In this document: positions 8,206 to 23,179 of the stretch, piece after piece | Position numbering within the stretch: the stretch's first letter is position 1 | Layout: each line of letters starts with the position of its first letter | Origin: Candidatus Delongbacteria bacterium | GTDB lineage: Bacteria; UBA4055 | DNA: 54,108 nt | Assembly: GCA_016937995.1 (NCBI GenBank) | Contig: JAFGVM010000016.1 | Location: forward strand, 165,224-219,331 | Direction of reading: 5' to 3' | Position numbers and translations under genes: made by a program | Notes under the pieces: model-generated | Told to the model about the DNA's origin: nothing | What the model saw: only the letters and a program-made list of their open reading frames with translations | Database searches by the model: none

Positions 8206-8281
8206 GCCTTCTTAGCTCAGTCGGTAGAGCAAGGGACTGAAAATCCCTGTGTCCGTGGTTCAATTCCGCGAGGAGGCACCA
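8206..8281 (+). tRNA. tRNA-Phe (GAA)
   Basis: 76 nt cloverleaf GCCTTCT...AGGAGGC-A-CCA; anticodon arm AGGGA-CTGAAAA-TCCCT; T-loop GGTTCAATTCC. Confidence 0.97.
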
Positions 8282-8282
8282 T

Positions 8283-8307
8283 AAACCCCTGTTATCAGGG
8301 GTTTTTT
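8283..8307 (+). terminator. Intrinsic terminator after tRNA-Phe
   Basis: AAACCCCTG-ttat-CAGGGGTTT followed by a T run. Confidence 0.85.
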
Positions 8308-8424
8308 ATTGCTCCAAAATCACAGACATTCAAAGAATTTAAATATTTTTTTATTTACTTAAGTTTCAAATATTATTAACATTTCGGTATATTTGGGAAT
8401 ATTAATAAATTCAAGGAGTATCTT

Positions 8425-9903
8425 ATGAGCAGAGACAGATGGTCATCAAGATATATTTTTCTCTTTGCGGCGATCGGAAGTGCAGTAGGATTAGGGAATG
8501 TATGGAAATTTCCATATTTAGCTTATAAATATGGGGGAGGTGCTTTTCTGATACCATATTTAATTGCCCTTGCTTTGATCGGGATCCCGCTGCTGACCAT
8601 AGAATTTGCTATTGGACAGAAAATGCAGAGCGGTGCTTTGGATTCTTTCGTAAAATTGCATAAAAGAGCAGGTGGTATAGGTTTTGCCGCAATTTTTGCT
8701 GGATTTATCGTAGTTGTCTACTATGCTGCTGTTATGGCCTGGTCACTATTGTACTTATTTCAATCATTTACAAATGATCTTCCATGGGCATCAGATTCGG
8801 GAAACCATTTTTTCAATAAAGTACTTACCATTTCTTCAGGTGTCGGAGATATTGGAGGTGTGAACTGGATTTTATTCATTTCTCTATTCTTTGTTTGGGT
8901 CATGATATATTTTACAATCTGGAAAGGTGTTAAAAGTGTAGGAAAGGTCGTTACCATCACTATGCCCTTACCGATCATACTTTTAGCTGTTCTATTTATT
9001 CGTGGAATTACTCTCAAAGGCGCCGGCTATGGAATTTCAGCTTATTTAACACCTAATTTTAAAATTCTACTTGATACAGATATCTGGTTAGCTGCTATTT
9101 CTCAGATATTTTTTACTCTCAGCATCGGTTTTGGTATAATGATAGCTTATGCAAGTTACAATAAAAAAGATCAGAATGTACTTGGAGATGCTGTTATAAC
9201 TGCTGTAGTGAACTCAGCTATAAGTCTCTTTGCTGGTTTTGTTGTTTTTTCAGTGCTTGGTTATATGGCAACTTCTACAGGAGCTGATATTAGTGAGGTG
9301 GCAAAAAGCGGTCCTGGACTAGCTTTTGTTGTGTTCCCGAAGGCTCTCTCCCTTATGCCATGGGCAGGATTTTTCTCGGTTCTGTTTTTTATAACACTTT
9401 TAAGTTTGGGTATAGACAGTGCATTCTCTTTGATCGAAGCAGTGAATACATCCCTGAAAGACCGGTTCCCTAAATTAAGTTTGGCAAAAATATCATTTTA
9501 TACCTGTACATCAGCTTTTCTTCTCGGTATTTTGTTCGTAACGAACGCAGGTCTTTATTATTTAGATATCGTTGACCATTTTATTACATATTATGGTCTG
9601 GTCATAGTAGGTTTTTTTGAGGTCATAATCATTGGATGGGTTTACAAAGCAAAACGTATGAGGGATTTCATTAATAGTGTGTCAAAATTCAAACTTGGAA
9701 TTTGGTTTGATATATTGATCAAATTCTTCATTCCTCTTATACTAGTATTAATTCTTATTGATAATTTGATAAACGAATTTAAAACAAATTACGAAGGCTA
9801 CCCTGACTGGGCATTGAGGATTGGTTGGGGACTTATAGTATTTCAAATAGTTGTTGCCTTATTTTTTGTTCTCAGAAATAAAAATATTGATGAAGAGGAA
9901 TAA
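8425..9903 (+). CDS. Sodium-dependent transporter, neurotransmitter:sodium symporter (LeuT-like) family
   Basis: RDRWSSR...AIGSAVGLGNVWKFPY...GGGAFLIPY; QIFFTLSIGFG; GPGLAFVVFP. Confidence 0.95.
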   Translation: MSRDRWSSRYIFLFAAIGSAVGLGNVWKFPYLAYKYGGGAFLIPYLIALALIGIPLLTIEFAIGQKMQSGALDSFVKLHKRAGGIGFAAIFAGFIVVVYYAAVMAWSLLYLFQSFTNDLPWASDSGNHFFNKVLTISSGVGDIGGVNWILFISLFFVWVMIYFTIWKGVKSVGKVVTITMPLPIILLAVLFIRGITLKGAGYGISAYLTPNFKILLDTDIWLAAISQIFFTLSIGFGIMIAYASYNKKDQNVLGDAVITAVVNSAISLFAGFVVFSVLGYMATSTGADISEVAKSGPGLAFVVFPKALSLMPWAGFFSVLFFITLLSLGIDSAFSLIEAVNTSLKDRFPKLSLAKISFYTCTSAFLLGILFVTNAGLYYLDIVDHFITYYGLVIVGFFEVIIIGWVYKAKRMRDFINSVSKFKLGIWFDILIKFFIPLILVLILIDNLINEFKTNYEGYPDWALRIGWGLIVFQIVVALFFVLRNKNIDEEE

Positions 9904-9942: not shown

Positions 9943-10854
9943 TTATTTTAATTTTTTCAGAACTAGATTTATCTTTTCTTCCATAGACAAATCTCCATCG
10001 ATCCAATTAATACCGATACCGTTTTTCTCCATTCTTCTAAACCATGTCATCTGACGTTTTGAAAATCTGTGAATTGAAGAATTAAGTTTCTGGAACATAT
10101 CATTATAATTATATTGACCGTCAAGATATTCGGCTAAATATTTATATTCAAGCCCGTAATATATCAGCTTCTCTTTAGATACTCCCATATCCAATAATTT
10201 TTTTGCTTCATCCACCATACCTTCTTCAAATCTGGCTCGCAATCTGTCCGTTATCCTTTTCTTTAGCCGGTCTCTGTCAAAACGAATGGCAAATATTACA
10301 TACTCTAATTCAGGAATTTGTTCATCGACATCATTTTCTGTCTGATAAACCGCAATTTCGATCGCTCTGATTAATCTTTTTCTGTACATAACATCAGTAA
10401 TATTATGAGGTGTCGTGAATTGATTTAAAATATCGGCCAGCTCTTCATCTGTTTTATCAGATAATTCATTTCTAAGAATATCATTTACAGGAACATTTAT
10501 TAGTTTATAGTTCTTCAGAACAGATTCAACATAAAGACCTGATCCTCCGCATAATACCGGTTGCTTCCCTCTGGAAGTGATATCCTCATATACTTTTATA
10601 AAATCATTCTGATATCTAAAAATATTGTATTCCTCACCGGGTTCACAGATATTAATTAAGTGAAATGGTATATTTATGTCATTTATAACAAAATCATCAA
10701 GGTCTTTTCCTGTGCCGATATTCATATGTTTATATACCTGTCTTGAATCGGCACTTATAACCTCTCCGTTAAGTAGACCGGCAATATTAGCTGCAAGTTT
10801 AGTTTTTCCGGTTGCGGTTTGTCCGGTTATTACTATTAATTTAGCTTTTGAAAT
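9943..10854 (-). CDS. miaA: tRNA dimethylallyltransferase; N-terminus extends 43 codons beyond the ORF call, probable ATT start
   Basis: The in-frame upstream extension gives LIVITGQTATGKT (P-loop) and ISADSRQVY; also CGGSGLY, GLEYK and KRQMTWFR. GGAG lies 6 nt before ATT 10854, and an in-frame TAA lies just upstream. Confidence 0.92.
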   Translation of the reverse strand: MSKAKLIVITGQTATGKTKLAANIAGLLNGEVISADSRQVYKHMNIGTGKDLDDFVINDINIPFHLINICEPGEEYNIFRYQNDFIKVYEDITSRGKQPVLCGGSGLYVESVLKNYKLINVPVNDILRNELSDKTDEELADILNQFTTPHNITDVMYRKRLIRAIEIAVYQTENDVDEQIPELEYVIFAIRFDRDRLKKRITDRLRARFEEGMVDEAKKLLDMGVSKEKLIYYGLEYKYLAEYLDGQYNYNDMFQKLNSSIHRFSKRQMTWFRRMEKNGIGINWIDGDLSMEEKINLVLKKLK

Positions 10855-10893
10855 AAAAAACTCCGGTTAAGTTATTTCTTATTTCGTAATAAT

Positions 10894-10922
10894 AAAAAAA
10901 ACCTTCCATTTAAGGAAGGTTT
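10894..10922 (-). terminator. Intrinsic terminator of the 10964-11314 gene
   Basis: AAACCTTCC/GGAAGGTTT stem with a U-tract on the minus strand. Confidence 0.7.
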
Positions 10923-10963
10923 AAATTTGAAATAAAAAGATGCTTCGTATTTTTTTTAAAACA

Positions 10964-11314
10964 TTATTGAGTCGTTTTTTCCAGAAATTTCTTTATTCTG
11001 AAGGTGGTCTCAGGAATGTTATCTGTTTTTACTAAGATCCAGACTGTAGTATATCCTTTACCGGCAAGGTCTTTTAAGCTTTTTAGGTCTGTTATGCAAA
11101 TCCCGTCTTCGCATTTTACAAGTTTTACTTCTTCACCTAATAGTTCCCCTCCATTCAGGCTGTCGTAAAATTTAAAGGTCACTTTGTAAGTACCGTCATC
11201 GAGAGGCAATCCATACTTGTCGGATAAAGTACTCTTAAAATTACCTGATTTTAATTTTTCGACTCCTAACAATGCTACGGTCAACATCATCAATACCAAT
11301 AACACTTTCTTCAT
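10964..11314 (-). CDS. Small secreted hypothetical protein
   Basis: AGGAGG RBS, signal peptide MKKVLLVLMMLTVALLG, own promoter and terminator. Confidence 0.8.
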   Translation of the reverse strand: MKKVLLVLMMLTVALLGVEKLKSGNFKSTLSDKYGLPLDDGTYKVTFKFYDSLNGGELLGEEVKLVKCEDGICITDLKSLKDLAGKGYTTVWILVKTDNIPETTFRIKKFLEKTTQ

Positions 11315-11491
11315 ATTTTCCTCCTTTCGTCCCCTTTTAATTGGAGATCACGTACGAAAAAAATTAGAGGGTAAGGTTTTCTATTTCTCAGTTTTACACT
11401 TTAAGAAACGTTCAAGAAAATTCTATATTTCACCATCAACACTATTAAATAAAACCTAGTTCAATCCCCTCGGATTTTTTTTCATATTTTC

Positions 11492-11520
11492 AATATAACT
11501 AAAATTTCGTGATTTGTCAA
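11492..11520 (-). promoter_or_regulatory. Promoter for the 10964-11314 gene
   Basis: Minus strand TTGACA-N17-TATATT. Confidence 0.65.
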
Positions 11521-11675
11521 ATGAGAAAAATCATATGCGACTATTTAGATATTAGTATAAGGTCAATATGTCCTGTAATTATTTTCTGGGAGTTTTATAA
11601 TTCTAATTAAAATCATTTATTAAATTAACTGTTTTTTGTATCTTTATATTCCGGTTAAAAAACGTGGCAGGATTT

Positions 11676-14546
11676 ATGAGAACATCAGACAAATTAATAA
11701 TAAAAGGTGCGAACGAGCACAATTTAAAAAATATAGACCTCGAACTTGAAAAGAACAAGCTTATAGTCTTCACAGGCATCAGCGGGTCTGGAAAATCTTC
11801 CATGGCTTTTGACACTATTTATACAGAGGGTCAGAGAAGATATGTTGAATCCTTATCAAATTATACCAAGCAGTTTCTGGGTATTATGAAAAAACCTGTA
11901 GTAGACTCTATTGAAGGGTTATCACCTGCGATATCCATTGAACAGAAGACATCATCGTCTAACCCAAGGTCAACAGTGGGGACAGTTACAGAGATCTTCG
12001 ACTTTGTCAGGATGCTTTTTGCAAGAGCCGGTCATCAATACTGCTACAGTTGCGAAAATGAGGTCCATTCCAGGGCTTTAGATGAAATAATCGGTGATAT
12101 CCTTAAGAGTCTTGAAGAAAATACAAAGTTCATAATAATTTCACCTTACATAGAAAGACAGAAAGGGAATTTGAAAAATTCTCTCGATTTCTTACGGGCT
12201 GAAGGATTTTTCAGAGTAATTATAGATGAAAAAGAATATACTCTTGATGATGAGATCAATGTTGATGAGAAAAAATTTCATAAACTGTATGTTATAGTTG
12301 ATAGATTAAAAAAGAGAGACGATATAAAAAGCAGGCTGGCGGAATCTGTTGAAATAGCTTTGAAGCTTTCAGGTGGTAATCTTATTATTGATGATCTTGA
12401 TAAGAAAGAACAGAAGTTATACAGTGAAAAAAATTACTGTCAGAAATGTCATATCAGTTATCCTGACCTGTCCCCGAATTCATTTTCTTTTAACACTCCG
12501 GCCGGTATGTGCAGTGATTGTCACGGGCTGGGTTTCATAAAAACTGTGGACATCAATAAACTCGTTAAATATCCAAAAAAAAGTATCTCTCAGGGTGCTA
12601 TTCCTTATGTGATGGGTCAAAATATCGAATTCAAGAAGATCAGGAGTATATTTAAAGCTTATGATGTTGATTTTAATACTCCTGTAAATAAAATTCCTGA
12701 GAAATTGTTCAAAGCGATAATGTACGGTACTTCAAAAACACTTTCGATGGATTATGTTTCTAAAAGTTTTCAGGGTGTGATCACAACATCTTATGAAGGA
12801 CTTTCAAATTTAATTGAGAGACGTTACAGAGAAACCAGTTCCAATATGGCAAGACATTACTACGAATCTTTCATGATGGACAGCTGTTGCGTCTCTTGCG
12901 AAGGAAAAAGGCTAAAAAAAGAATCACTGGCCGTTAAAGTACACGGTCACAGTATAGACCAGATCACATCAATGGAAATTAATAAATTAACTGAATTTGT
13001 AAAAGATCTTCCTGGTCATCTTACGGAAAAGGAAAATGAGATCATAAAGGAATTGCAGAAGGAGATGTGTGAAAGGTTGAACTTTTTGATGAATGTGGGT
13101 TTGCAATATCTGACTCTGGACAGAAATGCAAGAACGTTATCAGGAGGTGAAGCTCAGAGAATTAGGCTTGCAAGTCAGATCGCAAGTGGTCTAACAGGAG
13201 TGATCTATGTTCTTGACGAACCGAGTATAGGTCTTCATCAGAAAGACAATAAAAAATTGCTTGATAACTTGATCGAACTCAAGAACAAAGGTAATACTGT
13301 TATCGTGGTTGAGCATGACAGAGAAACTATTGAGGCTGCTGAAACGATAGTGGACTTTGGTAAGGAAGCAGGAGTCTACGGAGGAGATATTGTATATAGG
13401 GGAGATTATAAGAATCTTGAAAAAAACAGATCTCATACTTCCGATTATGTTTTCAGAAGGGAAAATGTAAATATTGAAAATAAAAGCAATGAAAATTCAG
13501 GTGAAATAGTTCTGTCAAAAGTTTCCACTAATAACCTGAAAGATATCAATGTAAGTTTTCCTTTGAACAAAATGACAGTTGTTACCGGTGTTTCCGGTGC
13601 GGGTAAAAGTAGCCTCGTGATGGATACACTCTATCCTGCATTAAAGTCTATGGCAAAGAACAAAGAAGATCTCAAAGATCCTGCCTCAAAGATAGAAGCG
13701 AACTACAATGATATATATATCAAAGATACTTTCGGAAAAAAATTCAATGATTTTGAAGTCAGATTGATAAAGATCGATCAAAATCCTATAGGCAGAACCC
13801 CAAGGTCAAATCCGGTTACATATATTGGTGCTTTTGATACTATCAGAGAGATCATGGCTAAATCAAAGCTTGCAAGGATGAGAGGTTATACAAAATCACG
13901 TTTCAGTTTCAATGTGAAAGGTGGTCGCTGTGAAAAATGCCAGGGTAGCGGTGTGATCAAAATTGAGATGCATTTCCTTGCGGATGTTTATGTAGAGTGT
14001 GATGTTTGTAACGGTAAGCGCTATAATTCCGAGACATTGGAAGTAACTTTTAAAGATAAAAATATTAACGAAATTTTGAACCTAGATGTTCAGGAAGCTT
14101 ATGAATTGTTTAAGAATATACCTGCTTTAAAAAATAAACTTGGAACTTTAATGTCTGTGGGGATGGGATATGTTAAACTTGGTCAACCTTCGACTACATT
14201 GTCCGGTGGGGAAGCACAGAGGATAAAACTTGCTAAAGAACTTTCCAGAGCAAAGATACAGGGAACTGTATATATTTTAGATGAACCAACAACAGGTTTG
14301 CACTTTTTAGATATTCAGCATCTTCTTAATGTTCTAAAAGAACTCAGAGATTCTGGTAGTACAGTTATCATCATTGAGCATAATCTTGATGTGATCGTTA
14401 ATTGTGATCATGTAATAGATCTTGGTCCTGATGGCGGGCCTACCGGTGGAAAACTTGTATTTCAGGGAAGTGTTGAGGAGATCGCTAAATCTAAAAAAGG
14501 TTACACTGCTAAAGAGGTCAGGAAGGAATTGAAAGCGAGAGGATAG
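11676..14546 (+). CDS. uvrA: Excinuclease ABC subunit A
   Basis: Two ABC modules (GISGSGKSS, LSGGEAQRIRLA, LDEPSIGLH; GVSGAGKSS, LSGGEAQRIKLA) and CxxC zinc fingers. ATG 11676 preferred over GTG 11664. Confidence 0.98.
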   Translation: MRTSDKLIIKGANEHNLKNIDLELEKNKLIVFTGISGSGKSSMAFDTIYTEGQRRYVESLSNYTKQFLGIMKKPVVDSIEGLSPAISIEQKTSSSNPRSTVGTVTEIFDFVRMLFARAGHQYCYSCENEVHSRALDEIIGDILKSLEENTKFIIISPYIERQKGNLKNSLDFLRAEGFFRVIIDEKEYTLDDEINVDEKKFHKLYVIVDRLKKRDDIKSRLAESVEIALKLSGGNLIIDDLDKKEQKLYSEKNYCQKCHISYPDLSPNSFSFNTPAGMCSDCHGLGFIKTVDINKLVKYPKKSISQGAIPYVMGQNIEFKKIRSIFKAYDVDFNTPVNKIPEKLFKAIMYGTSKTLSMDYVSKSFQGVITTSYEGLSNLIERRYRETSSNMARHYYESFMMDSCCVSCEGKRLKKESLAVKVHGHSIDQITSMEINKLTEFVKDLPGHLTEKENEIIKELQKEMCERLNFLMNVGLQYLTLDRNARTLSGGEAQRIRLASQIASGLTGVIYVLDEPSIGLHQKDNKKLLDNLIELKNKGNTVIVVEHDRETIEAAETIVDFGKEAGVYGGDIVYRGDYKNLEKNRSHTSDYVFRRENVNIENKSNENSGEIVLSKVSTNNLKDINVSFPLNKMTVVTGVSGAGKSSLVMDTLYPALKSMAKNKEDLKDPASKIEANYNDIYIKDTFGKKFNDFEVRLIKIDQNPIGRTPRSNPVTYIGAFDTIREIMAKSKLARMRGYTKSRFSFNVKGGRCEKCQGSGVIKIEMHFLADVYVECDVCNGKRYNSETLEVTFKDKNINEILNLDVQEAYELFKNIPALKNKLGTLMSVGMGYVKLGQPSTTLSGGEAQRIKLAKELSRAKIQGTVYILDEPTTGLHFLDIQHLLNVLKELRDSGSTVIIIEHNLDVIVNCDHVIDLGPDGGPTGGKLVFQGSVEEIAKSKKGYTAKEVRKELKARG

Positions 14547-14549: not shown

Positions 14550-14610
14550 GTTACACTGAGCGGAGTCGAAGTGTTAGATTATTTTAGTCGTAGCCGGAAG
14601 TACGTTACGA
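14550..14610. repeat. REP-like palindromic elements at the left border of the island
   Basis: ACACTGAGCGGAGTCGAAGTGT (a repeat motif I recognise from intergenic palindromes) and TCGTAGC...GTTACGA. Confidence 0.55.
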
Positions 14611-14655
14611 AGGAATGCGTTCATCATTAAGTTGGAAGTTTAATAGGAGAAATTT

Positions 14656-15609
14656 ATGTCACAATTTCACAGATTGGTCTATATCGATAAAATGATCAAA
14701 GAGTTCGGTCAAGTTACAAAAAAACAAGTCATCGATGAATTCCAGGTAAAAATTGGTACAGTAAAAAATGATTTCAGATACATGAAATTTGAAGTAAACT
14801 CTCCGATTGTATATTCTAGAAAGAAAAAGGCTTATCATTATAAAGATGACGGATTTGAACTATTCTCATTTAGACAAGAGAAGATCTTTCTCTTCTTTGT
14901 TTTGTTGAAGCAATTACTTCACCACGAAACATTAATGCCACTTGATCCTACAAATATACTCGAACTGATAAAAAGGGATGTCGATCCTGAATATTTAAAA
15001 CTCGAGACAAAAATAAGTTATGAGCTTTCAGAATTTGAATATCCTGATATGGAAAAGTTTGCAAGAATAGTCGGTTCGATGCTCAGGAAGTTCACTCTCA
15101 ACATAAAATATCTCGGTGCTAAAGGTAAAAAGTCATCTAGGGCAATTGAACCTTTCCATATTTTCTATTATCAGGGAAAGTGGTATGTATTAGCTCATTG
15201 CAGAAAGAAAGATGAATTAAGAATGTTCTTATTGTCAAGAATAGTAAAGATCGATGATAAGAACTCAGAAAAATTCAGTTGTAAAAGATATAAAGCTAAA
15301 GAGCTAAGAGATTTCTTGAATGACAGTTTTGGTATAGCACGGGGAAAAGAAGCAGATACCGCAGTAATAAGATTTTATGAACCTGTAATGTACCATATTA
15401 GAGATCAAAGGTGGCACAAGGATCAAAAAGTTAAAGTTGTAGACAATGATAAAGAAAAATATATTCAATTCACTCTTCCGGTTGCAAAATATGAAGAATT
15501 AGTCGGCAGAGTTCTCCGCTTCTCCCCCGATGCTGAGATCATTGCACCTCAAGCGATGAGAGAAATGTGGCTTTCAAAACTAAAACTATCTCTAAACAAG
15601 TATAATTAA
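14656..15609 (+). CDS. wHTH-WYL-WCX transcriptional regulator (PafBC/DriD/BrxR-like)
   Basis: N-terminal HTH (EFQVKIGTVKNDFRYM); WYL core SRAIEPFHIFYYQGKWYVLAHC...LRMFLLSRI; WCX tail VLRFSPDAEIIAPQAMRE; AGGAG RBS. Confidence 0.92.
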   Translation: MSQFHRLVYIDKMIKEFGQVTKKQVIDEFQVKIGTVKNDFRYMKFEVNSPIVYSRKKKAYHYKDDGFELFSFRQEKIFLFFVLLKQLLHHETLMPLDPTNILELIKRDVDPEYLKLETKISYELSEFEYPDMEKFARIVGSMLRKFTLNIKYLGAKGKKSSRAIEPFHIFYYQGKWYVLAHCRKKDELRMFLLSRIVKIDDKNSEKFSCKRYKAKELRDFLNDSFGIARGKEADTAVIRFYEPVMYHIRDQRWHKDQKVKVVDNDKEKYIQFTLPVAKYEELVGRVLRFSPDAEIIAPQAMREMWLSKLKLSLNKYN

Positions 15610-15614
15610 TTCAT

Positions 15615-15765
15615 TATTTTATACATATCCTAAGTTTATGTATAAAATATAGATATAATCCGGGTTATCTCTGCAGTTTTTACCATTGACATCGTATGTT
15701 TTTTTGCTTAAGTTGAATATGTATAAATAATTCGACAATTTATACATATCATTAAAACATGTATA
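15615..15765. promoter_or_regulatory. Repeated palindromic operators around the fic promoter
   Basis: TATACAT-N11-ATGTATA at 15620-15644 and 15741-15765, an extra half-site at 15719-15725, and TTGACA at 15686. Confidence 0.65.
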
Positions 15766-15793
15766 GAAATGTACAAAATATATAGGTGTCAAA

Positions 15794-16870
15794 ATGAATT
15801 TCGAATTAAAACCATTACCCGTATTGGGTGTTGATCTGGAAACAAAGAATATTTTAAAAAAATGCGCAACAGCAAATCGTTACCTGGCTGAGCTGAAAGG
15901 AATATCCGGTACTATTCCAAACCAGCAGATATTGATAAATACATTATCAATACAGGAAGCAAAAGACAGCTCTGAGATCGAAAATATCATTACAACTCAT
16001 GACGAACTTTTTAAAACAGAACTGTTCCCTGCTGCAAAATTTATCAATCCGGCGGCAAAAGAAGTATCTGATTATGTTTCTGCATTAAGAAAAGGTTACG
16101 AACTTGTAAAACAGAACGATCTTCTGACTACAAATAATATAATCGATATACAGTCGGCACTGGAAAGGAATAATTCAGGAATAAGAAAATTACCCGGAAC
16201 TGTTCTGAAAAATGAAAAAACCGGTGAAATAATATATACTCCCCCTCAGAATTATTATGATGTTATCAAATTGCTGGATAATCTTGTAAGATTTATCAAT
16301 GATGATGAATTATTGCATGTTGATGATCTTATAAAAATGGCTCTAATCCATTATCAGTTTGAAAGTATTCATCCTTTTTATGACGGTAACGGTAGAACCG
16401 GGAGAATAATAAATGTTCTTTATCTTGTGCTGAAAAATATGCTGGATATTCCGGTCTTGTATTTAAGTAGGTATATTGTGCAAAATAAAAAAGAATATTA
16501 CAGTTTGTTACAGGAAGTCAGGGATAAAGATAATTGGGAATCCTGGATACTTTTTATGCTTGATGCAATTGAAAATACATCAAAACAAACTATCACGAAA
16601 ATACAGGAAATAAATGAAGCATTAATGTCATATAAACATCAGATAAGAGCTAAATATAAATTTTACAGTCAGGATTTGATAAACAATCTATTTTTTCATC
16701 CATATACAAAGATTGAATTCATACAGAAATCACTTAAAATAACAAGACTAACTGCAACAAAATACCTAGATGAGCTGACAAAAGGTGGTTTTTTAAATAA
16801 AGAAAAAATCGGAAGATCCAATTACTACATTAACATAGCACTTTTTAGAATTTTGAGCAATAATATTTAA
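15794..16870 (+). CDS. Fic family AMPylase, class II, with C-terminal HTH
   Basis: Canonical HPFYDGNGRTGR motif; N-terminal inhibitory motif SSEIEN; C-terminal HTH ITRLTATKYLDEL. Confidence 0.93.
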   Translation: MNFELKPLPVLGVDLETKNILKKCATANRYLAELKGISGTIPNQQILINTLSIQEAKDSSEIENIITTHDELFKTELFPAAKFINPAAKEVSDYVSALRKGYELVKQNDLLTTNNIIDIQSALERNNSGIRKLPGTVLKNEKTGEIIYTPPQNYYDVIKLLDNLVRFINDDELLHVDDLIKMALIHYQFESIHPFYDGNGRTGRIINVLYLVLKNMLDIPVLYLSRYIVQNKKEYYSLLQEVRDKDNWESWILFMLDAIENTSKQTITKIQEINEALMSYKHQIRAKYKFYSQDLINNLFFHPYTKIEFIQKSLKITRLTATKYLDELTKGGFLNKEKIGRSNYYINIALFRILSNNI

Positions 16871-17077
16871 TTTCCCCTCCCTAAAATTAAAAATAATTAA
16901 GCAAAGAAATTCAATGAAGGTTGATTTTATTAAGAAGGAGCTAAGAGCAACTAAGTGACTTTGAGAATAAAATTAGCCTGACGAAGAAGTTCGAAGTTTA
17001 ATTTTTTTTTACTGGTCAAATTTAATACCCCCTAACAGTATTACATTACAGATGTGAATGCTTAAATAGGAGGTATC

Positions 17078-17383
17078 GTGAAAATCCCAAATAAAATAAA
17101 CTGCAAGAAATGCAATACAACATTAGCAACTTCCGGGTATGTAGGTAGAGACATTACAGGTAGATATGTTAGATGTATTACCTGCGATAAAGAATTGAAA
17201 AGAGGATACTTTTCCTTTGGTCTCTTAGGAGGTTACGCAAAAGTTTACACTATTCATATGGCCGATTTCCAGGTAAAGATCGTATGCGAGAAGTGTTTTA
17301 AGAGAATAAACAAATCAGGCATTAAATGCTACAATTGCGAAGTAGGGGTCGATTCCCATTCGACCCCAATTAGCAGAACATGA
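17078..17383 (+). CDS. Small basic protein with four CxxC pairs (putative double zinc ribbon)
   Basis: AGGAGG RBS before GTG; CKKC, CITC, CEKC, CYNC. Confidence 0.75.
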   Translation: MKIPNKINCKKCNTTLATSGYVGRDITGRYVRCITCDKELKRGYFSFGLLGGYAKVYTIHMADFQVKIVCEKCFKRINKSGIKCYNCEVGVDSHSTPISRT

Positions 17384-17443
17384 TCTTGAACAAGGGGTTT
17401 CAACCCCTTGTATGCAGTTAAATAAACAAAAGGAGATAGAACA

Positions 17444-17779
17444 ATGTGCAAAGAAAATTTGAGCAAAATACTCAGTACACTGAAACCACTAAAAGAAGAA
17501 CTTGAGCATGCTGTCAATAAAGTAACACTTCTTTTTTCAGAATTCGATTCAATTGATTTCGATGCTGAAGAAGAAAAAGAAGAGATCGAAGAAGCAATTG
17601 AGAATATAGAGAATGTTATGGATTCAATTACAAGAGATGAAGGAAAACAAACCATGCTGAAAGAGATCGATGCTTATAAGAAGAAAATAGAAGGATTGGA
17701 TGCTTCGGAACAAATTGTAAAAGAGATCCAGGATTTATTTGAAGAGATCAAATCAAAAGCGGAAGAATTGGATTTTTAA
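17444..17779 (+). CDS. Acidic helical hypothetical protein
   Basis: AAGGAG RBS; E/D-rich heptad pattern. Confidence 0.8.
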   Translation: MCKENLSKILSTLKPLKEELEHAVNKVTLLFSEFDSIDFDAEEEKEEIEEAIENIENVMDSITRDEGKQTMLKEIDAYKKKIEGLDASEQIVKEIQDLFEEIKSKAEELDF

Positions 17780-17936
17780 AAACAGTGCCAGTGATTAGTT
17801 GAAGCCAACTAATCATAAATGTAGGTCACTAACAATCTGTCATTATCGGACTTGATCCGGTAATCCATAGAGAAACATAAAAAATGGATCTCCGTGTCAA
17901 GCACGAAGATGACAAACAATAATAAGGAGAAGAATA

Positions 17937-18161
17937 ATGGCAAATGAAAAAGAAAAACTGTATTACCAGGCAGTACAAAAATGGGCTGAAAAGTCGGGTG
18001 AACTGGCTAAATGTCAAAGCAAAAACATGAAATGGTTTCTTGCTCCGCCTGTCATACAATGGATTACACCAAGTTATGAAAGTGATATTGAGAGGTTAGA
18101 GAAAGAAGTTGGAAAGCTTGAAAAGGAAATGGATGAATTGGAAGTAGAAGCAGAAATTTAA
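17937..18161 (+). CDS. Small hypothetical protein with acidic coiled-coil tail
   Basis: AAGGAG RBS; tail IERLEKEVGKLEKEMDELEVE. Confidence 0.75.
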   Translation: MANEKEKLYYQAVQKWAEKSGELAKCQSKNMKWFLAPPVIQWITPSYESDIERLEKEVGKLEKEMDELEVEAEI

Positions 18162-18273
18162 GGCATTGGCTCGTAGGGAACGCAGGAATGCGTTCCTCTA
18201 CCAATAACACACGAAAATCGAAGGGGACGATTTCTTATCGTCCCCAAAAACAAAATAATAAAGGAGTAAAACC

Positions 18274-18483
18274 ATGTTAAAAACAATAGCATCAGTTCTC
18301 GCTGGTATAGGAATAGGAGTTGCCCTGGCAGCATGGGCAGAAACGATGGATGATGATGTTTCAATCGATTCGCTGGATCTTGACATTGATGATCAGGATA
18401 CTGATTTGAAGGATGATACAACTGTAACAGAAAAAGAGGACAATGAAGCACTCGATGACCTCGCAACGGAGAATGCTTCGTAA
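18274..18483 (+). CDS. Small protein with N-terminal hydrophobic anchor and Asp-rich tail
   Basis: AAGGAG RBS; IASVLAGIGIGVALAAW followed by about 20 D/E in 47 residues. Confidence 0.75.
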   Translation: MLKTIASVLAGIGIGVALAAWAETMDDDVSIDSLDLDIDDQDTDLKDDTTVTEKEDNEALDDLATENAS

Positions 18484-18586
18484 TCGTAAGGGCTCAACAT
18501 CTTGAGCCCTTTTTCAACTCGTAAAGATAATGATATTGAATAGTTCTTTGAGGAAATAAAGAAAACCGATTAAGAGAGGAGGAAAA

Positions 18587-18922
18587 ATGCTAAAATTAAG
18601 AGTATTAACAACTTGTGCTGCTATATTATCGTTACTGATACTAGCCAGTATTAGTATAGCTCTTATTATCCATGCAACAACAGGATATACAGACATAGAT
18701 ATGCTTGAAAAAGAAGCACCCGTATTTTTAACTGAGAGAGGATATAAGATCATTTCTTATGATGGATATCAAGGAAAAATATTTCATGGTGGTTTTGTAT
18801 GGTATCAGGTAAGAGATAAAGATAATTATCTCTATGTATTAGCCGTTGGTGAATGGAATGACCGATTTATGATATATAACCAAAGATGTCTGAACGCATT
18901 ACCATTAAAATCAAACTTATAA
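18587..18922 (+). CDS. Single-pass membrane hypothetical protein
   Basis: GGAGGA RBS; N-terminal TM helix followed by an aromatic beta-rich domain. Confidence 0.75.
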   Translation: MLKLRVLTTCAAILSLLILASISIALIIHATTGYTDIDMLEKEAPVFLTERGYKIISYDGYQGKIFHGGFVWYQVRDKDNYLYVLAVGEWNDRFMIYNQRCLNALPLKSNL

Positions 18923-18936
18923 AAAAAAGGAGTATT

Positions 18937-19629
18937 ATGAAATATAAATGTGGATTAGAAATTTTGGATAAAAATATAAATGGTTTTACAACCAGTGAAA
19001 TGATCGTCTTCGGAGCTAGACCAGGACATGGTAATATATTCCTTCTACTTTCAGTAGTCAGAGGTATTTACAATAATGCTGAAAATAAACCTAAGATCAT
19101 GGTTCTGACAAATAGACAACAGGATAAATTCCCTGCAAACAAAGGAGATAAGAAGATTTTTAATATCGTTTACGATCAGTCACAGGATCTAAAAAGTTTC
19201 TTTGAGCAACTTTACAAGGTGATTGAATTATCGAAACCGGAGATAATTGTTTTTGATATTAATTCTTTATACTTTAACAGGAGCAAAGATTTTTACAGAA
19301 AATTGAAAAAGATCACTCTCGAAAACGATACTATGATTATAATTAATTCGTTATTGAAAAGAAAAGCAGATCAGAGAGTATATAGGCAACTTCAAGTGTC
19401 TGATCTTGAAGCTTCAAATGTGGTAGATGAAATAGCTGATAAAGTTGTTTTAATGTTCAGACCTGAGGTTTATGGGATCATGGATTGTAATGGTAGAAAG
19501 CAAAAAGGATTAGCTGACCTTGTCATATTCATGAACGATAACATCTATACTAATATTTTCCTTAATTTTGACGAAAATAAGAAAATATTCGATGAGAACT
19601 TGAAGAATCGGGGATATTATTATTTGTAA
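18937..19629 (+). CDS. Degenerate DnaB-like helicase C-terminal (RecA-fold) domain protein
   Basis: GLEILDKNINGFTTSEMIVFGARPGHGN and SDLEASNVVDEIADKVVLMFRPEVYG mirror DnaB motifs. AAGGAG RBS supports ATG 18937 rather than 18886. Confidence 0.8.
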   Translation: MKYKCGLEILDKNINGFTTSEMIVFGARPGHGNIFLLLSVVRGIYNNAENKPKIMVLTNRQQDKFPANKGDKKIFNIVYDQSQDLKSFFEQLYKVIELSKPEIIVFDINSLYFNRSKDFYRKLKKITLENDTMIIINSLLKRKADQRVYRQLQVSDLEASNVVDEIADKVVLMFRPEVYGIMDCNGRKQKGLADLVIFMNDNIYTNIFLNFDENKKIFDENLKNRGYYYL

Positions 19630-19653
19630 AGGCAGGTTCTACTGCCTTTTTTT
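19626..19653. terminator. Terminator between the small-ORF array and the convergent abiEii
   Basis: AAAGGCAG-gttcta-CTGCCTTT followed by a T run. Confidence 0.7.
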
Positions 19654-20521
19654 ATCCCTTCAACCGATCTTCCGTAATCGACACAAAAAAATCCTTCGAC
19701 CACAATTTCAACTCGGTTGAATCTGCTATGAAAGGAAATATGTCATTCTTTGCACTTTTATAATCTATTTCATTAAATTTCTTAAACAATAACTCTTTTA
19801 TATCAACTAAAGTCAAAATATTATCATGATCCAAATGCCCGGATTGCTTCATTCTCTGAGTTAAATGATCTAAATTCAGTTGAGCACCCTGAGATAAGTA
19901 CCAGACATAATCATATAGATCTCTACCTTTTGTTCTATTACTACCCCATCCCCTGCATAACAAAGCATGTACTTTTCCTGCAAATAACGATGGCAACGAA
20001 AATAATCTTACATGATATGGGATCGGTATAAGCTGATACTTTATTTCGTAATCTGCTCCATCAGGTGGATCTGTATCGATCTCCAGCTTAATTTTTATCA
20101 GCTCATTGTTATGTAATTTAGAAATCCCCGGTATTTTTGAAGAAATATCCAATATATGGATTTTCGTTCCACCTTTTATAAATGCTGATTCTATATTAGA
20201 AGAAATACTCTTAACCTTTTTTTCTACTTCCATATCGAAACCATAAGCACCCAATTCATCCTTAATAAATTTACAATATGGCTCTATCTCAAAATTTGGA
20301 TCTTTTTTGATCAGCGAAAAATCCAAGTCTTCAGAAAAACGATTTAATCCGTAAAAGATCCTAAGGGCAGAACCACCATAAAATGCTGCAATATTAAAAA
20401 AGTCAGCTCTGTATAATCCCAGTAGAGCTATTTCTTGAATAATTTCTTTTAAGGCATTTTTATAATCATCTGTAGTTACACAGCTATATTTTTTCAACAT
20501 TGATTCAACCGCACTATGCAT
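19652..20521 (-). CDS. AbiEii/AbiGii-family nucleotidyltransferase toxin (type IV TA)
   Basis: FYGGSALRIFYGLNRFSEDLDFS; KVHALL...KGRDLYD. Confidence 0.92.
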   Translation of the reverse strand: MHSAVESMLKKYSCVTTDDYKNALKEIIQEIALLGLYRADFFNIAAFYGGSALRIFYGLNRFSEDLDFSLIKKDPNFEIEPYCKFIKDELGAYGFDMEVEKKVKSISSNIESAFIKGGTKIHILDISSKIPGISKLHNNELIKIKLEIDTDPPDGADYEIKYQLIPIPYHVRLFSLPSLFAGKVHALLCRGWGSNRTKGRDLYDYVWYLSQGAQLNLDHLTQRMKQSGHLDHDNILTLVDIKELLFKKFNEIDYKSAKNDIFPFIADSTELKLWSKDFFVSITEDRLKG

Positions 20522-20531
20522 TTTACTCCTT

Positions 20532-21107
20532 TTATGTCAAAAACTTTAAGAATCTATCCAACAGCTTTTTTCTGTACAATGGAACCAATAACTTTAATTC
20601 CTTTTTGTCTAATGAAAAGACCTGTTCTCTATCAAACCTTAGATCATCAAATAACAACTTCTCAATATCATAGTCAGCTTTTAATTTTTTGATCTTATAC
20701 AACGTATCGCAAACAGCTTTTTCTTTTGTTGCTATTAAAAATGGTTCGTTTTCTTCTTCAATGAGTACTACACTTTGATAATAAACCAAAGGATTTATGT
20801 ATCGATACAGGAATTTCCCTACCGGTGTTTCAAAAAGTTTGTCTTTATTTTTGTTAAACACTGCGGAGGTAACAACTTGAACTTTTTCAGGAATAATACC
20901 ATGCCACGAAAGTGCGTATTCAAATGAAATGTATGAAGGACCGTAGATTATATTTGCAAGAGTATTTCTATTGTAATCATTATCTTTGATATAAAGTCCG
21001 CGCTTAATCTTAATTACTTCACCTGACTTAATCATAGTTGTTAATTTTGATTTTGGTGAAGCATATTCAGCCAGGCTTTCCATTAAATATAAAGTATCAA
21101 AATACAC
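20532..21107 (-). CDS. AbiEi-family antitoxin/transcriptional regulator
   Basis: wHTH ending KIKRGLY; PSYISFEYALSWHGIIPE; ATKEKAVCD; lies directly upstream of abiEii. GTG 21107 has an AGGGAG RBS; TTG 21131 is the alternative. Confidence 0.88.
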   Translation of the reverse strand: MYFDTLYLMESLAEYASPKSKLTTMIKSGEVIKIKRGLYIKDNDYNRNTLANIIYGPSYISFEYALSWHGIIPEKVQVVTSAVFNKNKDKLFETPVGKFLYRYINPLVYYQSVVLIEEENEPFLIATKEKAVCDTLYKIKKLKADYDIEKLLFDDLRFDREQVFSLDKKELKLLVPLYRKKLLDRFLKFLT

Positions 21108-21136
21108 AGACTTCTCCCTTTTCTCCGGCAAGTATG

Positions 21137-21165
21137 AATATATCGTATTTTTCAGAGAAAGTCAA
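21137..21165 (-). promoter_or_regulatory. Promoter of the abiE operon
   Basis: Minus strand TTGACT-N17-TATATT. Confidence 0.65.
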
Positions 21166-21183: not shown

Positions 21184-22200
21184 TTAAAATGCTTTCGCAC
21201 CTGTGATTATGATCGATAAATTTCCCTCTAATGAAGAAGCTGCTTCTACTCTTATACCTATATCTTTAATTTTGTAGATAAACCCTCCCCCATATCCGAG
21301 TTTGATATTCTTCATTGAAAGATCTTCAATTTTATTAAATACATCTCCAACAGATAAAAAAGAAGTAAGCGAAACTGCTTTGTAGATCAGAATATCGTAC
21401 TGCGACTGAAAAGCCATCATATTTCTGTCAACAAAACGTCTTTCCGGATATCCTCTCAGAATAGAACTCCCTCCCAAGGATGAGAGCTGATGATAATGGG
21501 GTTCTCCCCCGACGATTCTTGTGATCAATTGCAGGTTTATAGCTGATTGATTGATCGATCTATAGTAAGCTAATTGACTTTCAAATATTTTAAGCGACTC
21601 AGATTTCCCCAGAGATTCAGGAAAATATATAAAAGAATTTTCAAATAAAATTCCATCTCTGTAAAAATCATCAGTAATTGTATCATATCTTATCTTTAAT
21701 CCGATACCTGTAGAATAAATATCTCTTTGATCCAACTCTGGAATATCCTCTGAACTGTAACCGGGACTGTAATAAAAAATATTTACAGAAAAAAAACTTT
21801 TCCAGTTCTCATAAAATTCTAAACCAACGTCAAAGTGATCTTCAAGAAAGAAATAACCGTATTTAAACTCATTCCCCAATTCAGAACCGTTACCAACACC
21901 GTAATACTCCAGATAGTAATCCTCAAACCAGAACTTGTTCTCTAAAAATACTGATCCCAGCTTTTTTTCTGTGATAACGAAAAATATTTTCTGGTCTTTG
22001 AATGTATAGATAAGATTACTGAATATCTTGTCTTCGTCATTGCAGTTGTAATTGAAGAATGTTCCTAACGCAACACTTGTATCTGTTGTGTAGAAACCGA
22101 AAGGAAAAATTATATAATCTCCTTCAGTTTTGGTTGAATCTGATTGGGAATAAGAAGATCCCGCAATAAGAAGCAATAATAATAAAGATACTTTTCTCAT
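21184..22200 (-). CDS. Omp85/BamA-TamA-like outer-membrane beta-barrel without POTRA domains
   Basis: Signal peptide from ATG 22200 (MRKVSLLLL); LGGSSILRGY..RRF lid motif; terminal Phe. Confidence 0.75.
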   Translation of the reverse strand: MRKVSLLLLLLIAGSSYSQSDSTKTEGDYIIFPFGFYTTDTSVALGTFFNYNCNDEDKIFSNLIYTFKDQKIFFVITEKKLGSVFLENKFWFEDYYLEYYGVGNGSELGNEFKYGYFFLEDHFDVGLEFYENWKSFFSVNIFYYSPGYSSEDIPELDQRDIYSTGIGLKIRYDTITDDFYRDGILFENSFIYFPESLGKSESLKIFESQLAYYRSINQSAINLQLITRIVGGEPHYHQLSSLGGSSILRGYPERRFVDRNMMAFQSQYDILIYKAVSLTSFLSVGDVFNKIEDLSMKNIKLGYGGGFIYKIKDIGIRVEAASSLEGNLSIIITGAKAF

Positions 22201-22299
22201 AATAGATGATCGGTTTGTTAGGACTTCAATATAAATGATGAAGCTTAGTATTACAATGAATAATTTACAGGACACTGTTCTTCAAAAACTTTTTATTTC

Positions 22300-22372: not shown

Positions 22373-23179
22373 ATGGAAAAAAAGATCATAGAGAAATTGA
22401 AAGACATTTATTACTACATGCAATATGGTAAACTGATGCCGGGATTTATTCATAACATCAATGGAAAGATCACTGCAGTTGACTCAAAACTTCAGATAAC
22501 TTCTATGAAAACTCAGATGAAGCTTAAGAAACTTATTGCAAAAAAAGAAGAAATTGATCCGGAAGTATTTGAAACAACAAAAGCTGAATATGAAAACTTA
22601 CTCGAAACCATAGAACAATTGAAAAACCCAATGACCGAATTAACGGGACTTATGAAGACTATAAATGAAAAAGTGTTCAATGAAAGTAGTCCCGGAATTC
22701 AAATGATCGACATAAACGGCACCATAAAAAGCTTTGATGAATTTTTTAAATTCTATAAGAGATATAAACACGATACCGAAGTTATAATGGATCTGGAGGG
22801 TAATCCTTTTGTTAAAATGGAATACCGGGATGTTTATTTGATACTTTATACAATAGTGAGAAACGCTGTGGATTCTACTTATCTAGGCAGTTCAGAATCA
22901 AAGCAGATACGTTTTACAACAAATAATCACAGTAATCATGTTGATCTAAAAATTTTCTGTAACGGAAGAAAGATCACTGACGAAAATAAATTATTCGACC
23001 CGCTCTATACCACAAAGGTCGATTACTCAGATACTAACCAAAATGATGATGATCCGAAAGGTGCCGGTCTTGATCTGTATTTCCTCAAAATGATCCTGGA
23101 AAAATATGAAGGCTATGATTACAGCTTGAAAAATGTAGAAGGTGGAACTGAGTTTAGAATAAAGTTGTTGAAAAAATAG
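22373..23179 (+). CDS. Cytoplasmic sensor-less histidine kinase-like protein (HisKA + degenerate HATPase_c)
   Basis: H-box GFIHNING, N-box IVRNAVD, F-box LFDPLYTTK, G2-like GAGLDL, terminal GGTEFRIKL. Confidence 0.75.
   Translation: MEKKIIEKLKDIYYYMQYGKLMPGFIHNINGKITAVDSKLQITSMKTQMKLKKLIAKKEEIDPEVFETTKAEYENLLETIEQLKNPMTELTGLMKTINEKVFNESSPGIQMIDINGTIKSFDEFFKFYKRYKHDTEVIMDLEGNPFVKMEYRDVYLILYTIVRNAVDSTYLGSSESKQIRFTTNNHSNHVDLKIFCNGRKITDENKLFDPLYTTKVDYSDTNQNDDDPKGAGLDLYFLKMILEKYEGYDYSLKNVEGGTEFRIKLLKK

Follow-up and report, generated by a model that had tools for sequence, protein, structure and literature searches.

Gene content of the locus

We analyzed positions 14550–21165 of a 54,108-nucleotide (nt) stretch of Candidatus Delongbacteria DNA (hereafter, the window), in which a gene for a WYL-domain transcription factor is followed by a fic gene, six small open reading frames (ORF1–ORF6), the last of which encodes a DnaB-like protein, and a convergent abiEi/abiEii pair. 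The list of open reading frames and four family libraries (Pfam, PADLOC, PHROGs, and NCBIfam) formed the basis of the analysis. The original prediction had taken the entire region, lying directly behind uvrA, for one damage- or infection-responsive island, and its individual gene assignments were well reproduced. Namely, Pfam identified the WYL and WCX domains of the regulator, and its winged helix-turn-helix (wHTH) was seen in an AlphaFold2 (AF2) model; the fic product matched PADLOC SoFic at 3.1e-117 together with Pfam Fic_N, Fic, and SoFic-like_C; and the abiEi and abiEii products, encoded on the strand opposite to the operon, matched their PADLOC models at 2.8e-59 and 8.3e-110, respectively. 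The terminator scan listed nothing between uvrA and the WYL gene, and the 109-nt spacer was unstructured (fold z = +0.95). The six ORFs were co-oriented and all had an AGGAGG/AAGGAG-type site upstream as described, except that the start of the last ORF had to be moved. The 6.6-kb stretch itself, however, was found to be a composite of a six-gene core and genome-specific additions, and not one unit. The features of the core are as follows.

14656–15609, plus strand: WYL transcription factor (class A type) of 317 amino acids, with Pfam WYL and WCX; first gene of the cassette.
17010–17051, plus strand: conserved non-coding block with the motif TACCCCC-N9-TACATT at 17026–17047 (alignment A2, against the second locus, L001, described below).
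17078–17383, plus strand: ORF1, basic protein (isoelectric point, pI, 9.5) with two zinc ribbons from four CxxC pairs.
17444–17779, plus strand: ORF2, acidic (pI 4.1–4.4), all-helical protein; orthologue at 9130–9471 of L001.
17937–18161, plus strand: ORF3, the best-conserved small protein; orthologue at 9481–9708 of L001.
18274–18483, plus strand: ORF4, protein whose N-terminus is hydrophobic and whose tail is very acidic (pI 4.05); orthologue at 9739–9936 of L001.
18937–19629, plus strand: ORF6, 230 amino acids, stand-alone DnaB C-terminal RecA-like domain.

A second locus delimits a six-gene cassette

By using a profile of the DnaB-like relatives (alignment A1), one locus, L001, was found in 185,579 species genomes, on a contig of a Candidatus Delongbacteria metagenome-assembled genome (MAG). 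In L001, a tRNA-Leu gene on the minus strand is followed by the genes for the WYL protein, ORF1′, ORF2′, ORF3′, ORF4′, and the DnaB-like protein, with the orientation kept as in the window. Thus, the small ORFs co-occur with a WYL gene elsewhere, a test that the original prediction had named: L001 holds orthologues of ORF1–ORF4 and of the DnaB-like protein in the same order. Amino acid identities between the window and L001 were 60% for the WYL protein, 31% for ORF1, 36% for ORF2, 68–69% for ORF3, 37% for ORF4, and 64% for ORF6. Across the six shared genes, the synonymous differences (pS, 0.66–0.93) were near saturation, whereas the nonsynonymous ones (pN) amounted to 0.20–0.42, and the pN/pS ratios were 0.31 for the WYL gene, 0.52 for ORF1, 0.24 for ORF3, and 0.21 for ORF6. 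Because pN was low at near-saturated synonymous divergence, all six shared genes were considered to be maintained as proteins, and since five of the six small ORFs were conserved in L001 with pN/pS values of 0.21–0.64, these five were judged to be real genes. The intergenic gaps of L001 from ORF1′ through the DnaB-like gene were 10, 9, 30, and about 60 nt; with the gaps between the small genes being only 10, 9, and 30 nt, the genes were regarded as forming one operon.

No counterpart of Fic, ORF5, AbiEi, or AbiEii was found in L001, whose flanks consist of ndk, oxidoreductase subunit genes, and purL upstream and a membrane/coiled-coil ORF downstream. Therefore, the unit is defined by what L001 shares within differing flanks: the conserved unit is a six-gene cassette comprising the WYL gene, ORF1–ORF4, and ORF6, and SoFic, ORF5, and AbiE are additions in the window genome. 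In comparison with L001, the WYL gene of the window is followed by an acquired fic segment of 1.4 kb, ORF5 has entered ahead of the DnaB-like gene, and long, structured spacers have been gained. The idea that novel, non-enzymatic proteins are encoded in a WYL-linked operon accordingly survived for the core and failed for Fic, ORF5, and AbiE. Likewise, the location behind uvrA turned out not to be a feature of the system, since L001 carries tRNA-Leu/ndk at that position.

These comparisons bear directly on the view that the whole of 14550–21165, Fic and AbiE included, is a single WYL-controlled island responding to damage or infection. Such an arrangement would fit the shared orientation of the WYL gene, fic, and all six ORFs, and also the lack of a terminator behind uvrA; nevertheless, three of its parts are missing from L001 as described above, fic has a repeat-rich region of its own in front and precedes the conserved promoter block, and the AbiE pair is encoded on the opposite strand and has a separate promoter-like site. 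This view is thus held to be very improbable.

In L001, the tRNA-Leu(CAG) gene (7636–7720, minus strand) lies directly upstream of the WYL gene. On the other side of the cassette, 10825–11349 encodes a protein of 174 amino acids that contains a coiled coil and has a hydrophobic, Gly/Ala-rich N-terminus, showing a weak match to PADLOC LeoBC (1e-5), and 11343–11545 is a further coiled-coil ORF running into the contig end. These two downstream ORFs could be extra accessory genes.

The DnaB-like protein lacks the catalytic residues of the helicase

ORF6 matched Pfam DnaB_C at 8.5e-16 (58.5 bits, cut-off 27) and a DnaB structure in the Protein Data Bank (PDB; 4nmn) at 8.8e-18, and reached 52.7 bits against the cut-off of 385 for the NCBIfam DnaB family; the match to PHROG 19 was weak, and the single PADLOC match, to AbiEii at about 1e-3 to 3e-3, was spurious. 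Its structural model, with a predicted local distance difference test (pLDDT) score of 65.5, matched the folds of DnaB (TMq 0.61–0.65), KaiC, and RadA (about 0.6). The start codon was most likely located at 18937 and not at 18886, as in all relatives, which leaves no overlap with ORF5. The alignment to DnaB begins at Bst residue 188 or Aquifex residue 178 (profile position 5 corresponding to Bst 188); that is, ORF6 is devoid of the N-terminal domain and the linker helix of DnaB, the full length of which is about 440–470 amino acids.

The active-site residues were inspected in a family alignment composed of eight members and three ordinary DnaB fragments. The DnaB sequence ARPGMGKT was aligned with ARPGHGNI in ORF6, and the P-loop GK(T/S) was replaced in the family by GNI (three members), GNL (two), SKI (two), or GML (one). 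The Thr/Ser had thus changed to Ile/Leu in 8/8 members, and the Lys column contained Asn in five, Lys in two, and Met in one. The arginine of KxRxG was likewise replaced by Asp in all eight, the active-fragment KNRNG being aligned with xNDxx; moreover, the arginine of Aquifex AKQRQ was aligned with the invariant Asp of the family (LNDK), in agreement with the solved-DnaB alignments. The SDLRES motif, whose arginine contacts single-stranded DNA (ssDNA) in DnaB, appeared as SDLE(T/A), ADIE, or SDLQ, so that E or Q stands in place of the Arg. For DnaB, the accessible part of PMC12214026 describes what the P-loop Lys (Bst K216) and the arginine finger (Bst R420) do. Meanwhile, ORF6 retained the DnaB surfaces around RPxISDLE and ADKVILMxRPEVYG, including the strand after RPxxSDL, and 7/8 family members possessed a C-terminal NRGYYYL tail that is absent from DnaB and may serve as a docking peptide.

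Taken together, ORF6 is clearly homologous in sequence and fold to the RecA-like C-terminal domain of DnaB, yet differs from it in lacking the N-terminal domain, the linker helix, the P-loop Lys/Thr, and the arginine finger and in having the NRGYYYL tail. It is a DnaB homologue that we do not class as a helicase, since it fails three of the four defining DnaB features. The dead DnaB of the original prediction was borne out in that the last ORF is a DnaB_C homologue without the P-loop catalytic residues and the arginine finger; judging from these replacements, ORF6 is predicted to be catalytically dead and no longer able to hydrolyze nucleoside triphosphates. Because the loss of catalytic residues was uniform and the constraint was strong (pN/pS 0.21), ORF6 was considered to have a selected binding role and not to be in decay.

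The family was very rare. An exhaustive profile search of 1.84 billion cluster representatives yielded 23,147 DnaB-like matches, of which four clusters, with proteins of 229–239 amino acids, scored below 1e-30; after these four close clusters, the scores fell to ordinary DnaBs at 1.6e-23. In a 5.8-billion-protein index, ORF6 had four close relatives (60–65% identity), and the profile search of the representatives showed three distant clusters as well. Complex prediction for ORF1, ORF2, and ORF3 against ORF6 gave scores of 0.09 and 0.01 relative to a mark of 0.32, which, with the shallow alignments available, speak neither for nor against an association.

The retained surfaces could also be reconciled with a positive accessory role in replication or repair, in which the dead DnaB, induced by damage, and the zinc-ribbon protein would help to reload or stabilize the helicase at stalled forks, serving as a loader or adaptor and not as a brake. 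Helicase loaders such as DnaI have zinc-binding N-domains that contact the helicase C-domain, the cassette adjoins uvrA in the window, and its regulator is DriD/PafBC-like (see below). On the other hand, the adjacency to uvrA is not conserved, no loader-like AAA+ domain was detected with Pfam and NCBIfam, and the extreme rarity of the family speaks against a housekeeping role; a repair function of this kind is hence deemed improbable.

Small proteins encoded by the cassette

All eight Cys residues of ORF1 (8/8) were kept in its L001 counterpart (8880–9119), and Pfam DZR was matched at 1.3e-4, below the cut-off. For ORF2, the family libraries gave coiled-coil-type noise only, with PADLOC scores of 3e-4 or weaker, and a search of the ESM Atlas returned no feature match and nothing above chance, merely generic helical bundles. 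In ORF3, the N-terminal half is rich in Trp, and residues 47–72 make up a canonical heptad coiled coil, which matched designed and GCN4 coiled coils in the PDB sequence search. No match to ORF3 was obtained in the four family libraries, its homologue search returned itself only, and its ESM Atlas scores were 0.81 or less, with nothing above chance. In ORF4, the N-terminus GVALAAWAET was conserved (alignment A8), while the tail varied in sequence but not in composition; inspected by eye, ORF4 could be a membrane anchor or could be exported via the AWA/ET signal-peptidase-like site.

As a whole, ORF1–ORF4 showed no curated-family match in the four libraries, and the PDB sequence searches with ORF1, ORF3, and ORF5 detected zinc-finger or coiled-coil noise only. 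In PADLOC 2.0, ORF1, ORF3, ORF4, and ORF5 gave no matches. The PADLOC check suggested by the original prediction gave a divided outcome, in which SoFic, AbiEi, and AbiEii were matched and ORF1–6 gave nothing beyond coiled-coil noise and the spurious AbiEii match.

A promoter-like block precedes ORF1

The non-coding block upstream of ORF1 was 78% identical between the window and L001, compared with about 65% for coding DNA. L001 carries the same motif with the same 9-nt spacing at 8825–8846, and the block ends 30 nt (window) or 33 nt (L001) before the ORF1 start codon. TACCCCC occurs once in the 54-kb window, in which the full pattern would be expected 0.14 times. At this block, no −35-like hexamer was found in either locus; with TACATT taken as the −10 element, the C-rich element falls at about −28 to −22. 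As far as the accessible portions of the respective reports describe, PafBC promoters have a −26 element and a −10 element and no −35 (PMC8635444), and SiwR activates at the −26 region beside its adjacent target operon (PMC10693628). We thus propose that TACCCCC-N9-TACATT could be an activator-dependent hybrid promoter of the small-gene operon. The likeness to these actinobacterial systems, whose activators work by 'sigma adaptation', lies in the −26/−10 layout, the TAnnnT hexamer, the lack of a −35, and, for SiwR, the adjacent target operon; the differences are the other phylum, the other motif, and the fact that the cassette promoter was read from two sequences alone. The fic gene of the window separates the WYL gene from this block, which belongs to the small-gene operon and not to fic.

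A second TACCCCC is present in L001 at 7730–7736 on the minus strand, 10 nt from the 5′ end of tRNA-Leu. It is probably due to chance, as 26/200 shuffles gave two or more copies.

The WYL regulator

The regulator matched Pfam WYL at 2.3e-15 (56.8 bits, cut-off 21.8) and WCX at 1.2e-10 (42 bits, cut-off 23.9), and its L001 orthologue (7840–8793) also has Pfam WYL and WCX. The PADLOC WYL model PDLC01457 spans residues 4–300 of the window protein, and the WYL domain alone touches the PADLOC DRT model 'RTasWYL'. Pfam gave no HTH match in the window protein, and one relative (P0159) matched HTH_DeoR only at 0.086. The AF2 model, built from a 15-sequence alignment, had a pLDDT of 76.7 and a predicted template modeling (pTM) score of 0.41. 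It comprises a wHTH (residues 3–62), a helical linker region (72–144), the WYL domain (148–200), and the WCX domain (234–316); the modeled wHTH is formed by helices 3–17, 22–29, and 33–46 and a β-hairpin at 51–62, with a pLDDT of 79–93 for residues 3–62.

In the Foldseek search, DriD ranked first (E 6e-13, TMq 0.47–0.50), followed by PafBC, with BrxR and CapW at TMq 0.27–0.34; the fold matches to DriD and BrxR extended over the full length. The WYL family profile was aligned to DriD and PafB/C through WYL and WCX (128–312), including the ESFGI linker motif, as opposed to the WYL domain alone for BrxR and CapW, and among PDB sequences the WYL domain was matched best by PafBC (1.2e-20). From these alignments and the model, the WYL protein appears to be closer to DriD and PafBC, which are ssDNA-sensing activators, than to BrxR or CapW. 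PafBC nonetheless differs in being a fused heterodimer-like protein of 664 amino acids. BrxR and CapW share with the cassette the wHTH-WYL-WCX family and the regulator-first co-oriented layout, and the window also has defence-gene neighbours; unlike in those systems, however, the downstream genes of the cassette belong to no known defence family, and the fold matches were the weaker ones given above.

DriD of Caulobacter is an ssDNA-bound WYL activator that turns on non-enzymatic effectors, among them the division inhibitor encoded by didA, and its ssDNA contacts are Y168, R176, R178, Y192, K202, R204, R207, and Y240, according to the accessible part of PMC9186387. When these contacts were mapped onto the window protein through an HMMER alignment, Y168, R178, and R204 were found to be kept as Y152, R162, and R189, which are invariant or nearly so in the family. 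With other contacts replaced (see below), a nucleic-acid ligand is no more than plausible for the WYL protein. DriD is the best fold match, has the same domain order, and is similar in size (327 versus 317 amino acids here). DidA is a small membrane protein, and the cassette output also includes a small protein with one hydrophobic helix, ORF4. In contrast, the identity to DriD is about 16%, four to five of the ssDNA contacts differ, the proposed operator TACCCCC is not palindromic, and the target genes have no relation to those controlled by DriD.

Distribution and relation to defence systems and mobile elements

In a tblastn search of 50,697 phage and 72,556 plasmid records, ORF6 retrieved only distant true DnaBs with 23–27% identity, and the best phage match, MT837557.1, proved to be a full-length 520-amino-acid DnaB ORF. 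In the same records, the WYL protein had no plasmid match and one weak phage match, and ORF3 had no match. The WYL subfamily comprised 14 relatives in the 5.8-billion-protein index, ten at 57–65%, three at 41–47%, and one at 27% identity, and their source names included Candidatus Delongbacteria and a 'Clostridiales' MAG label. Literature searches on the WYL domain with DnaB and on DnaB_C in defence found no description of the cassette, and for DnaB_C the one relevant paper was a retron survey (PMC13712802). The cargo of the cassette is absent from PADLOC 2.0 and from the phage and plasmid records, and its layout of a regulator with an adjacent operon is a known one.

These data also serve to weigh the possibility that the cassette is a classical anti-phage system, in which a BrxR/CapW-like repressor would control a dead DnaB that decoys or senses the helicase loaders or helicase inhibitors of phages and the small proteins would execute abortive infection, for example, through the membrane peptide. 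BREX and CBASS are repressed by the WYL proteins BrxR and CapW, as described in the accessible part of PMC12041258, and both proteins turned up in the fold and sequence comparisons. In the window, SoFic lies within the cassette and AbiE directly beside it, both being PADLOC defence families, and the rarity, patchy distribution, and differing flanks of the cassette fit accessory defence genes. Moreover, DnaB_C accessory genes of type XI-like retrons have been reported (PMC13712802, in part accessible): TXI_noncan_h resembles the cassette in having a stand-alone DnaB_C protein in a putative immune or conflict locus. Compared by description only, the two differ in that no WYL proteins are reported for the DnaB_C lineage in the accessible text of PMC13712802, and no reverse transcriptase domain was found in the ORFs of 14.5–21.2 kb or of L001. 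Likewise, SoFic and AbiE match known defence genes strongly, yet they are neighbours of the cassette and not parts of it. ORF1–6 have no PADLOC 2.0 model beyond the noise noted above, the 855 nt downstream of the cassette in L001 contain no recognized defence gene other than the weak LeoBC-like match (1e-5), the WYL protein is closer to the activators than to BrxR/CapW, and none of the phage or plasmid records searched carries a relative. On balance, such an anti-phage system is a serious candidate but an unlikely one.

The phage and plasmid searches are also relevant to the idea that the locus is a leftover module of a degraded mobile element, the WYL protein being its former regulator without a present cellular function. 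DnaB-like genes are common in phages, the flanks of the two copies differ, and the L001 copy stands beside tRNA-Leu. Integration at the 3′ end of a tRNA gene is usual, however, and the cassette lies on the 5′ side of this one. In addition, genes of mobile elements, such as integrase or capsid genes, are missing next to both copies, the phage and plasmid records contain no relatives beyond the distant true DnaBs, and, with synonymous divergence saturated, all six genes are intact and show purifying selection. Likewise, a catalytic loss that is uniform across the family would be expected if a non-catalytic role is under selection, not if the gene is decaying. Such a leftover is accordingly quite improbable.

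Additions and non-coding elements in the window

The remaining features of the region and its upstream flank are listed below.

11664–14546, plus strand: uvrA (Pfam UvrA_inter 3e-28, UvrA_DNA-bind 4.5e-24); upstream flank, outside the cassette.
15595–15768, no strand assigned: repeat- and palindrome-rich spacer upstream of fic, with TTTATACATAT / ATGTATAAA units.
15794–16870, plus strand: fic, SoFic-type (Fic_N, Fic, and a C-terminal wHTH), with the PADLOC SoFic match given above (3.1e-117).
17780–17925, plus strand: structured spacer between ORF2 and ORF3 with two long hairpins (minimum free energy, MFE, −47.7 kcal/mol; z = −7.8).
18162–18273, plus strand: structured spacer between ORF3 and ORF4 with two GC-rich hairpins (MFE −39.1 kcal/mol; z = −6.8).
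18489–18515, plus strand: GC-rich hairpin and T-run after ORF4, seen by folding and not listed by the simple terminator scan.
18587–18922, plus strand: ORF5, predicted membrane protein with an N-terminal transmembrane segment (maximum hydropathy 2.81); outside the core.
19628–19649, no strand assigned: hairpin terminator common to the operon end and abiEii (terminator scan; fold z = −3.1).
19652–20521, minus strand: abiEii, nucleotidyltransferase toxin (Pfam AbiEii 2.3e-29; PADLOC 8.3e-110).
20532–21131, minus strand: abiEi, antitoxin/regulator (PADLOC AbiEi 2.8e-59; Pfam AbiEi_4 0.013, below the cut-off).

The fic product matched Pfam Fic_N at 6.2e-27, Fic at 8.3e-16, and SoFic-like_C at 1.6e-19; for NCBIfam ProtAdlyltaseSoFic it reached 370.8 bits, below the cut-off of 550, and thus does not qualify as an equivalog. 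Its translation contains the HPFYDGNGRTGR motif and an SxxxEN inhibitory motif, both assigned by their consensus forms. The spacer upstream of fic harbours a direct repeat, D1 (53 nt, two copies, 74%), and nested inverted repeats, I1, I4, and I13, and this segment is not present in L001. It is probably the control region of fic itself, and its TTTATACATAT / ATGTATAAA palindromes are perhaps candidate operators for the C-terminal wHTH of Fic. ORF5 was an orphan, with no relative found and none in Pfam, PADLOC, PHROGs, NCBIfam, or the PDB sequences. The abiEi and abiEii genes, an AbiE type IV toxin-antitoxin pair, are 10 nt apart on the same strand, with a promoter-like site at 21165–21137. SoFic, ORF5, and AbiE are regarded as separate modules joined to the locus, and the spot resembles a small defence/stress hotspot.

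A hairpin with a T-run also occurs in L001 at the same place after ORF4′ (about 9956–9985), and it is possible that this element is an attenuator ahead of the DnaB-like gene. Its presence in both loci suggests that the DnaB-like gene would be expressed at a lower level, by read-through. As for the two structured spacers, 0/200 shuffles were as stable as either, and the corresponding spacers of L001 are 9 and 30 nt long; they could be inserted hairpin elements or processing/stability signals. Rfam at the gathering score found two tRNAs only in the window, and at E ≤ 1 gave only a chance miRNA-hairpin match over the ORF2–ORF3 spacer. The 12-mer AGGAATGCGTTC was found twice, at 14611–14622 in the uvrA–WYL spacer and at 18184–18195 in the ORF3–ORF4 hairpin; 0.13 copies are expected, 2/100 shuffles reach two, and it lies within the 26-nt repeat D11 (81%). 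It may be a small repeated hairpin element. An integron cassette array, or a cluster of attC sites lacking an integron integrase (CALIN), was considered and rejected: the only tyrosine recombinase is XerC/D-like and 6.5 kb away, the same genes abut without hairpins in L001, and no R″/R′ core-site pairing was seen by eye.

The GC content across the region (0.30–0.35) was no different from that of the flanks, and the rest of the window is ordinary chromosome, including ribD, miaA, ispF, thrS, infC, ribosomal protein genes, and an H+-PPase gene. The recombinase mentioned above is of XerC/D size (7214–8113; Phage_integrase 5.6e-49) and lies 6.5 kb upstream of the cassette with no sign of a link to it; a tRNA-Phe gene (8206–8281) comes after it. 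Beyond AbiE, 21184–22275 (minus strand) encodes a 363-amino-acid protein with a hydrophobic N-terminus and no family match, PADLOC included, and 22373–23179 (plus strand) encodes a 268-amino-acid protein matching only HATPase_c (GHKL, 1.7e-8), without HisKA and with no PADLOC match. The C-termini of two large proteins (47913–50921 and 51381–52796) are sorting domains for type IX secretion (Por_Secre_tail), as would fit an FCB-group/Delongbacteria-like host, and an insertion sequence-type rve integrase is located at the window end (52998–53894).

Proposed function of the cassette

The explanation that we prefer starts from the observed gene identities, synteny, loss of catalytic residues, and purifying selection, and from these we infer the regulation, ligand, and target of the cassette. 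The WYL protein, being of the DriD/PafBC/SiwR type, would bind a nucleic-acid signal, most likely ssDNA, arising from DNA damage or from an invading replicon. The signal-bound regulator would then activate the putative TACCCCC-N9-TACATT hybrid promoter before ORF1. As none of the products seems to be an enzyme, they would act by binding, and the dead DnaB domain would keep the subunit and partner surfaces of the helicase with the motor gone. ORF6 would titrate or poison a partner, namely, DnaB, the loader, or the primase, with the small proteins possibly assisting or targeting it, and the outcome, which is the least certain step, would be a brake on replication or the cell cycle. A rough probability of 0.4 is assigned to this explanation, in which a signal sensed by the WYL protein activates the operon and the dead DnaB poisons or titrates a helicase partner. 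A more specific form of the brake, in which the motor-less DnaB C-domain, together with zinc-ribbon/coiled-coil partners, would on a signal (ssDNA sensed by the WYL protein) insert into or cap the helicase or sequester the loader and so halt replication of the host or of an invader, is rather doubtful. The labels 'defence island' and 'stalls host or phage replication', which had been attached to the locus at the outset, are likewise interpretive.

Several points weigh against the preferred explanation. Firstly, the conservation of both synteny and promoter is that between n = 2 loci, the window and L001. The regulator is seemingly commoner than the dead DnaB (ten close WYL clusters versus four DnaB-like ones), and of the nine close WYL clusters besides that of L001, six are on contigs longer than 10 kb, none of which is size-matched to a DnaB-like contig; the WYL regulator may thus occur also without the dead DnaB. 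As regards the signal, the DriD contacts R176, K202, R207, and Y240 are replaced by S, E, L, and A, respectively, and at the position of Y192 the Tyr (Y177) is found in the window protein only, most relatives having Thr. The fold ranking that places DriD first comes from a monomer model with a pTM of 0.41, in which the domain orientation shifts the TM-scores, and the sequence of the WYL protein would be compatible with an activator or a repressor alike. Furthermore, the hairpin and T-run after ORF4 in both loci could uncouple the expression of ORF4 and ORF6, and the binding of ORF6 to any replisome protein is at this stage a proposal.

WYL regulators are emerging as the main non-SOS ssDNA sensors linking DNA-damage responses and phage defence, as far as described in the accessible parts of PMC10693628 and PMC12392091. 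Few outputs of such regulators are understood, and that of the present cassette contains no recognizable enzyme; its largest product is a uniformly inactivated replicative-helicase motor domain under purifying selection. The cassette is well delimited but very rare and confined to uncultured bacteria, and the distinction between its core and the later additions decides which genes should be cloned together. Should ORF6 act on the replisome, nature would have produced a decoy or dominant-negative subunit of the helicase. Replication would then be arrested in a new manner, and studies of helicase loading would gain a useful probe. Such a pseudo-enzyme effector class, if true, would be new to both DNA-damage checkpoints and anti-phage immunity.

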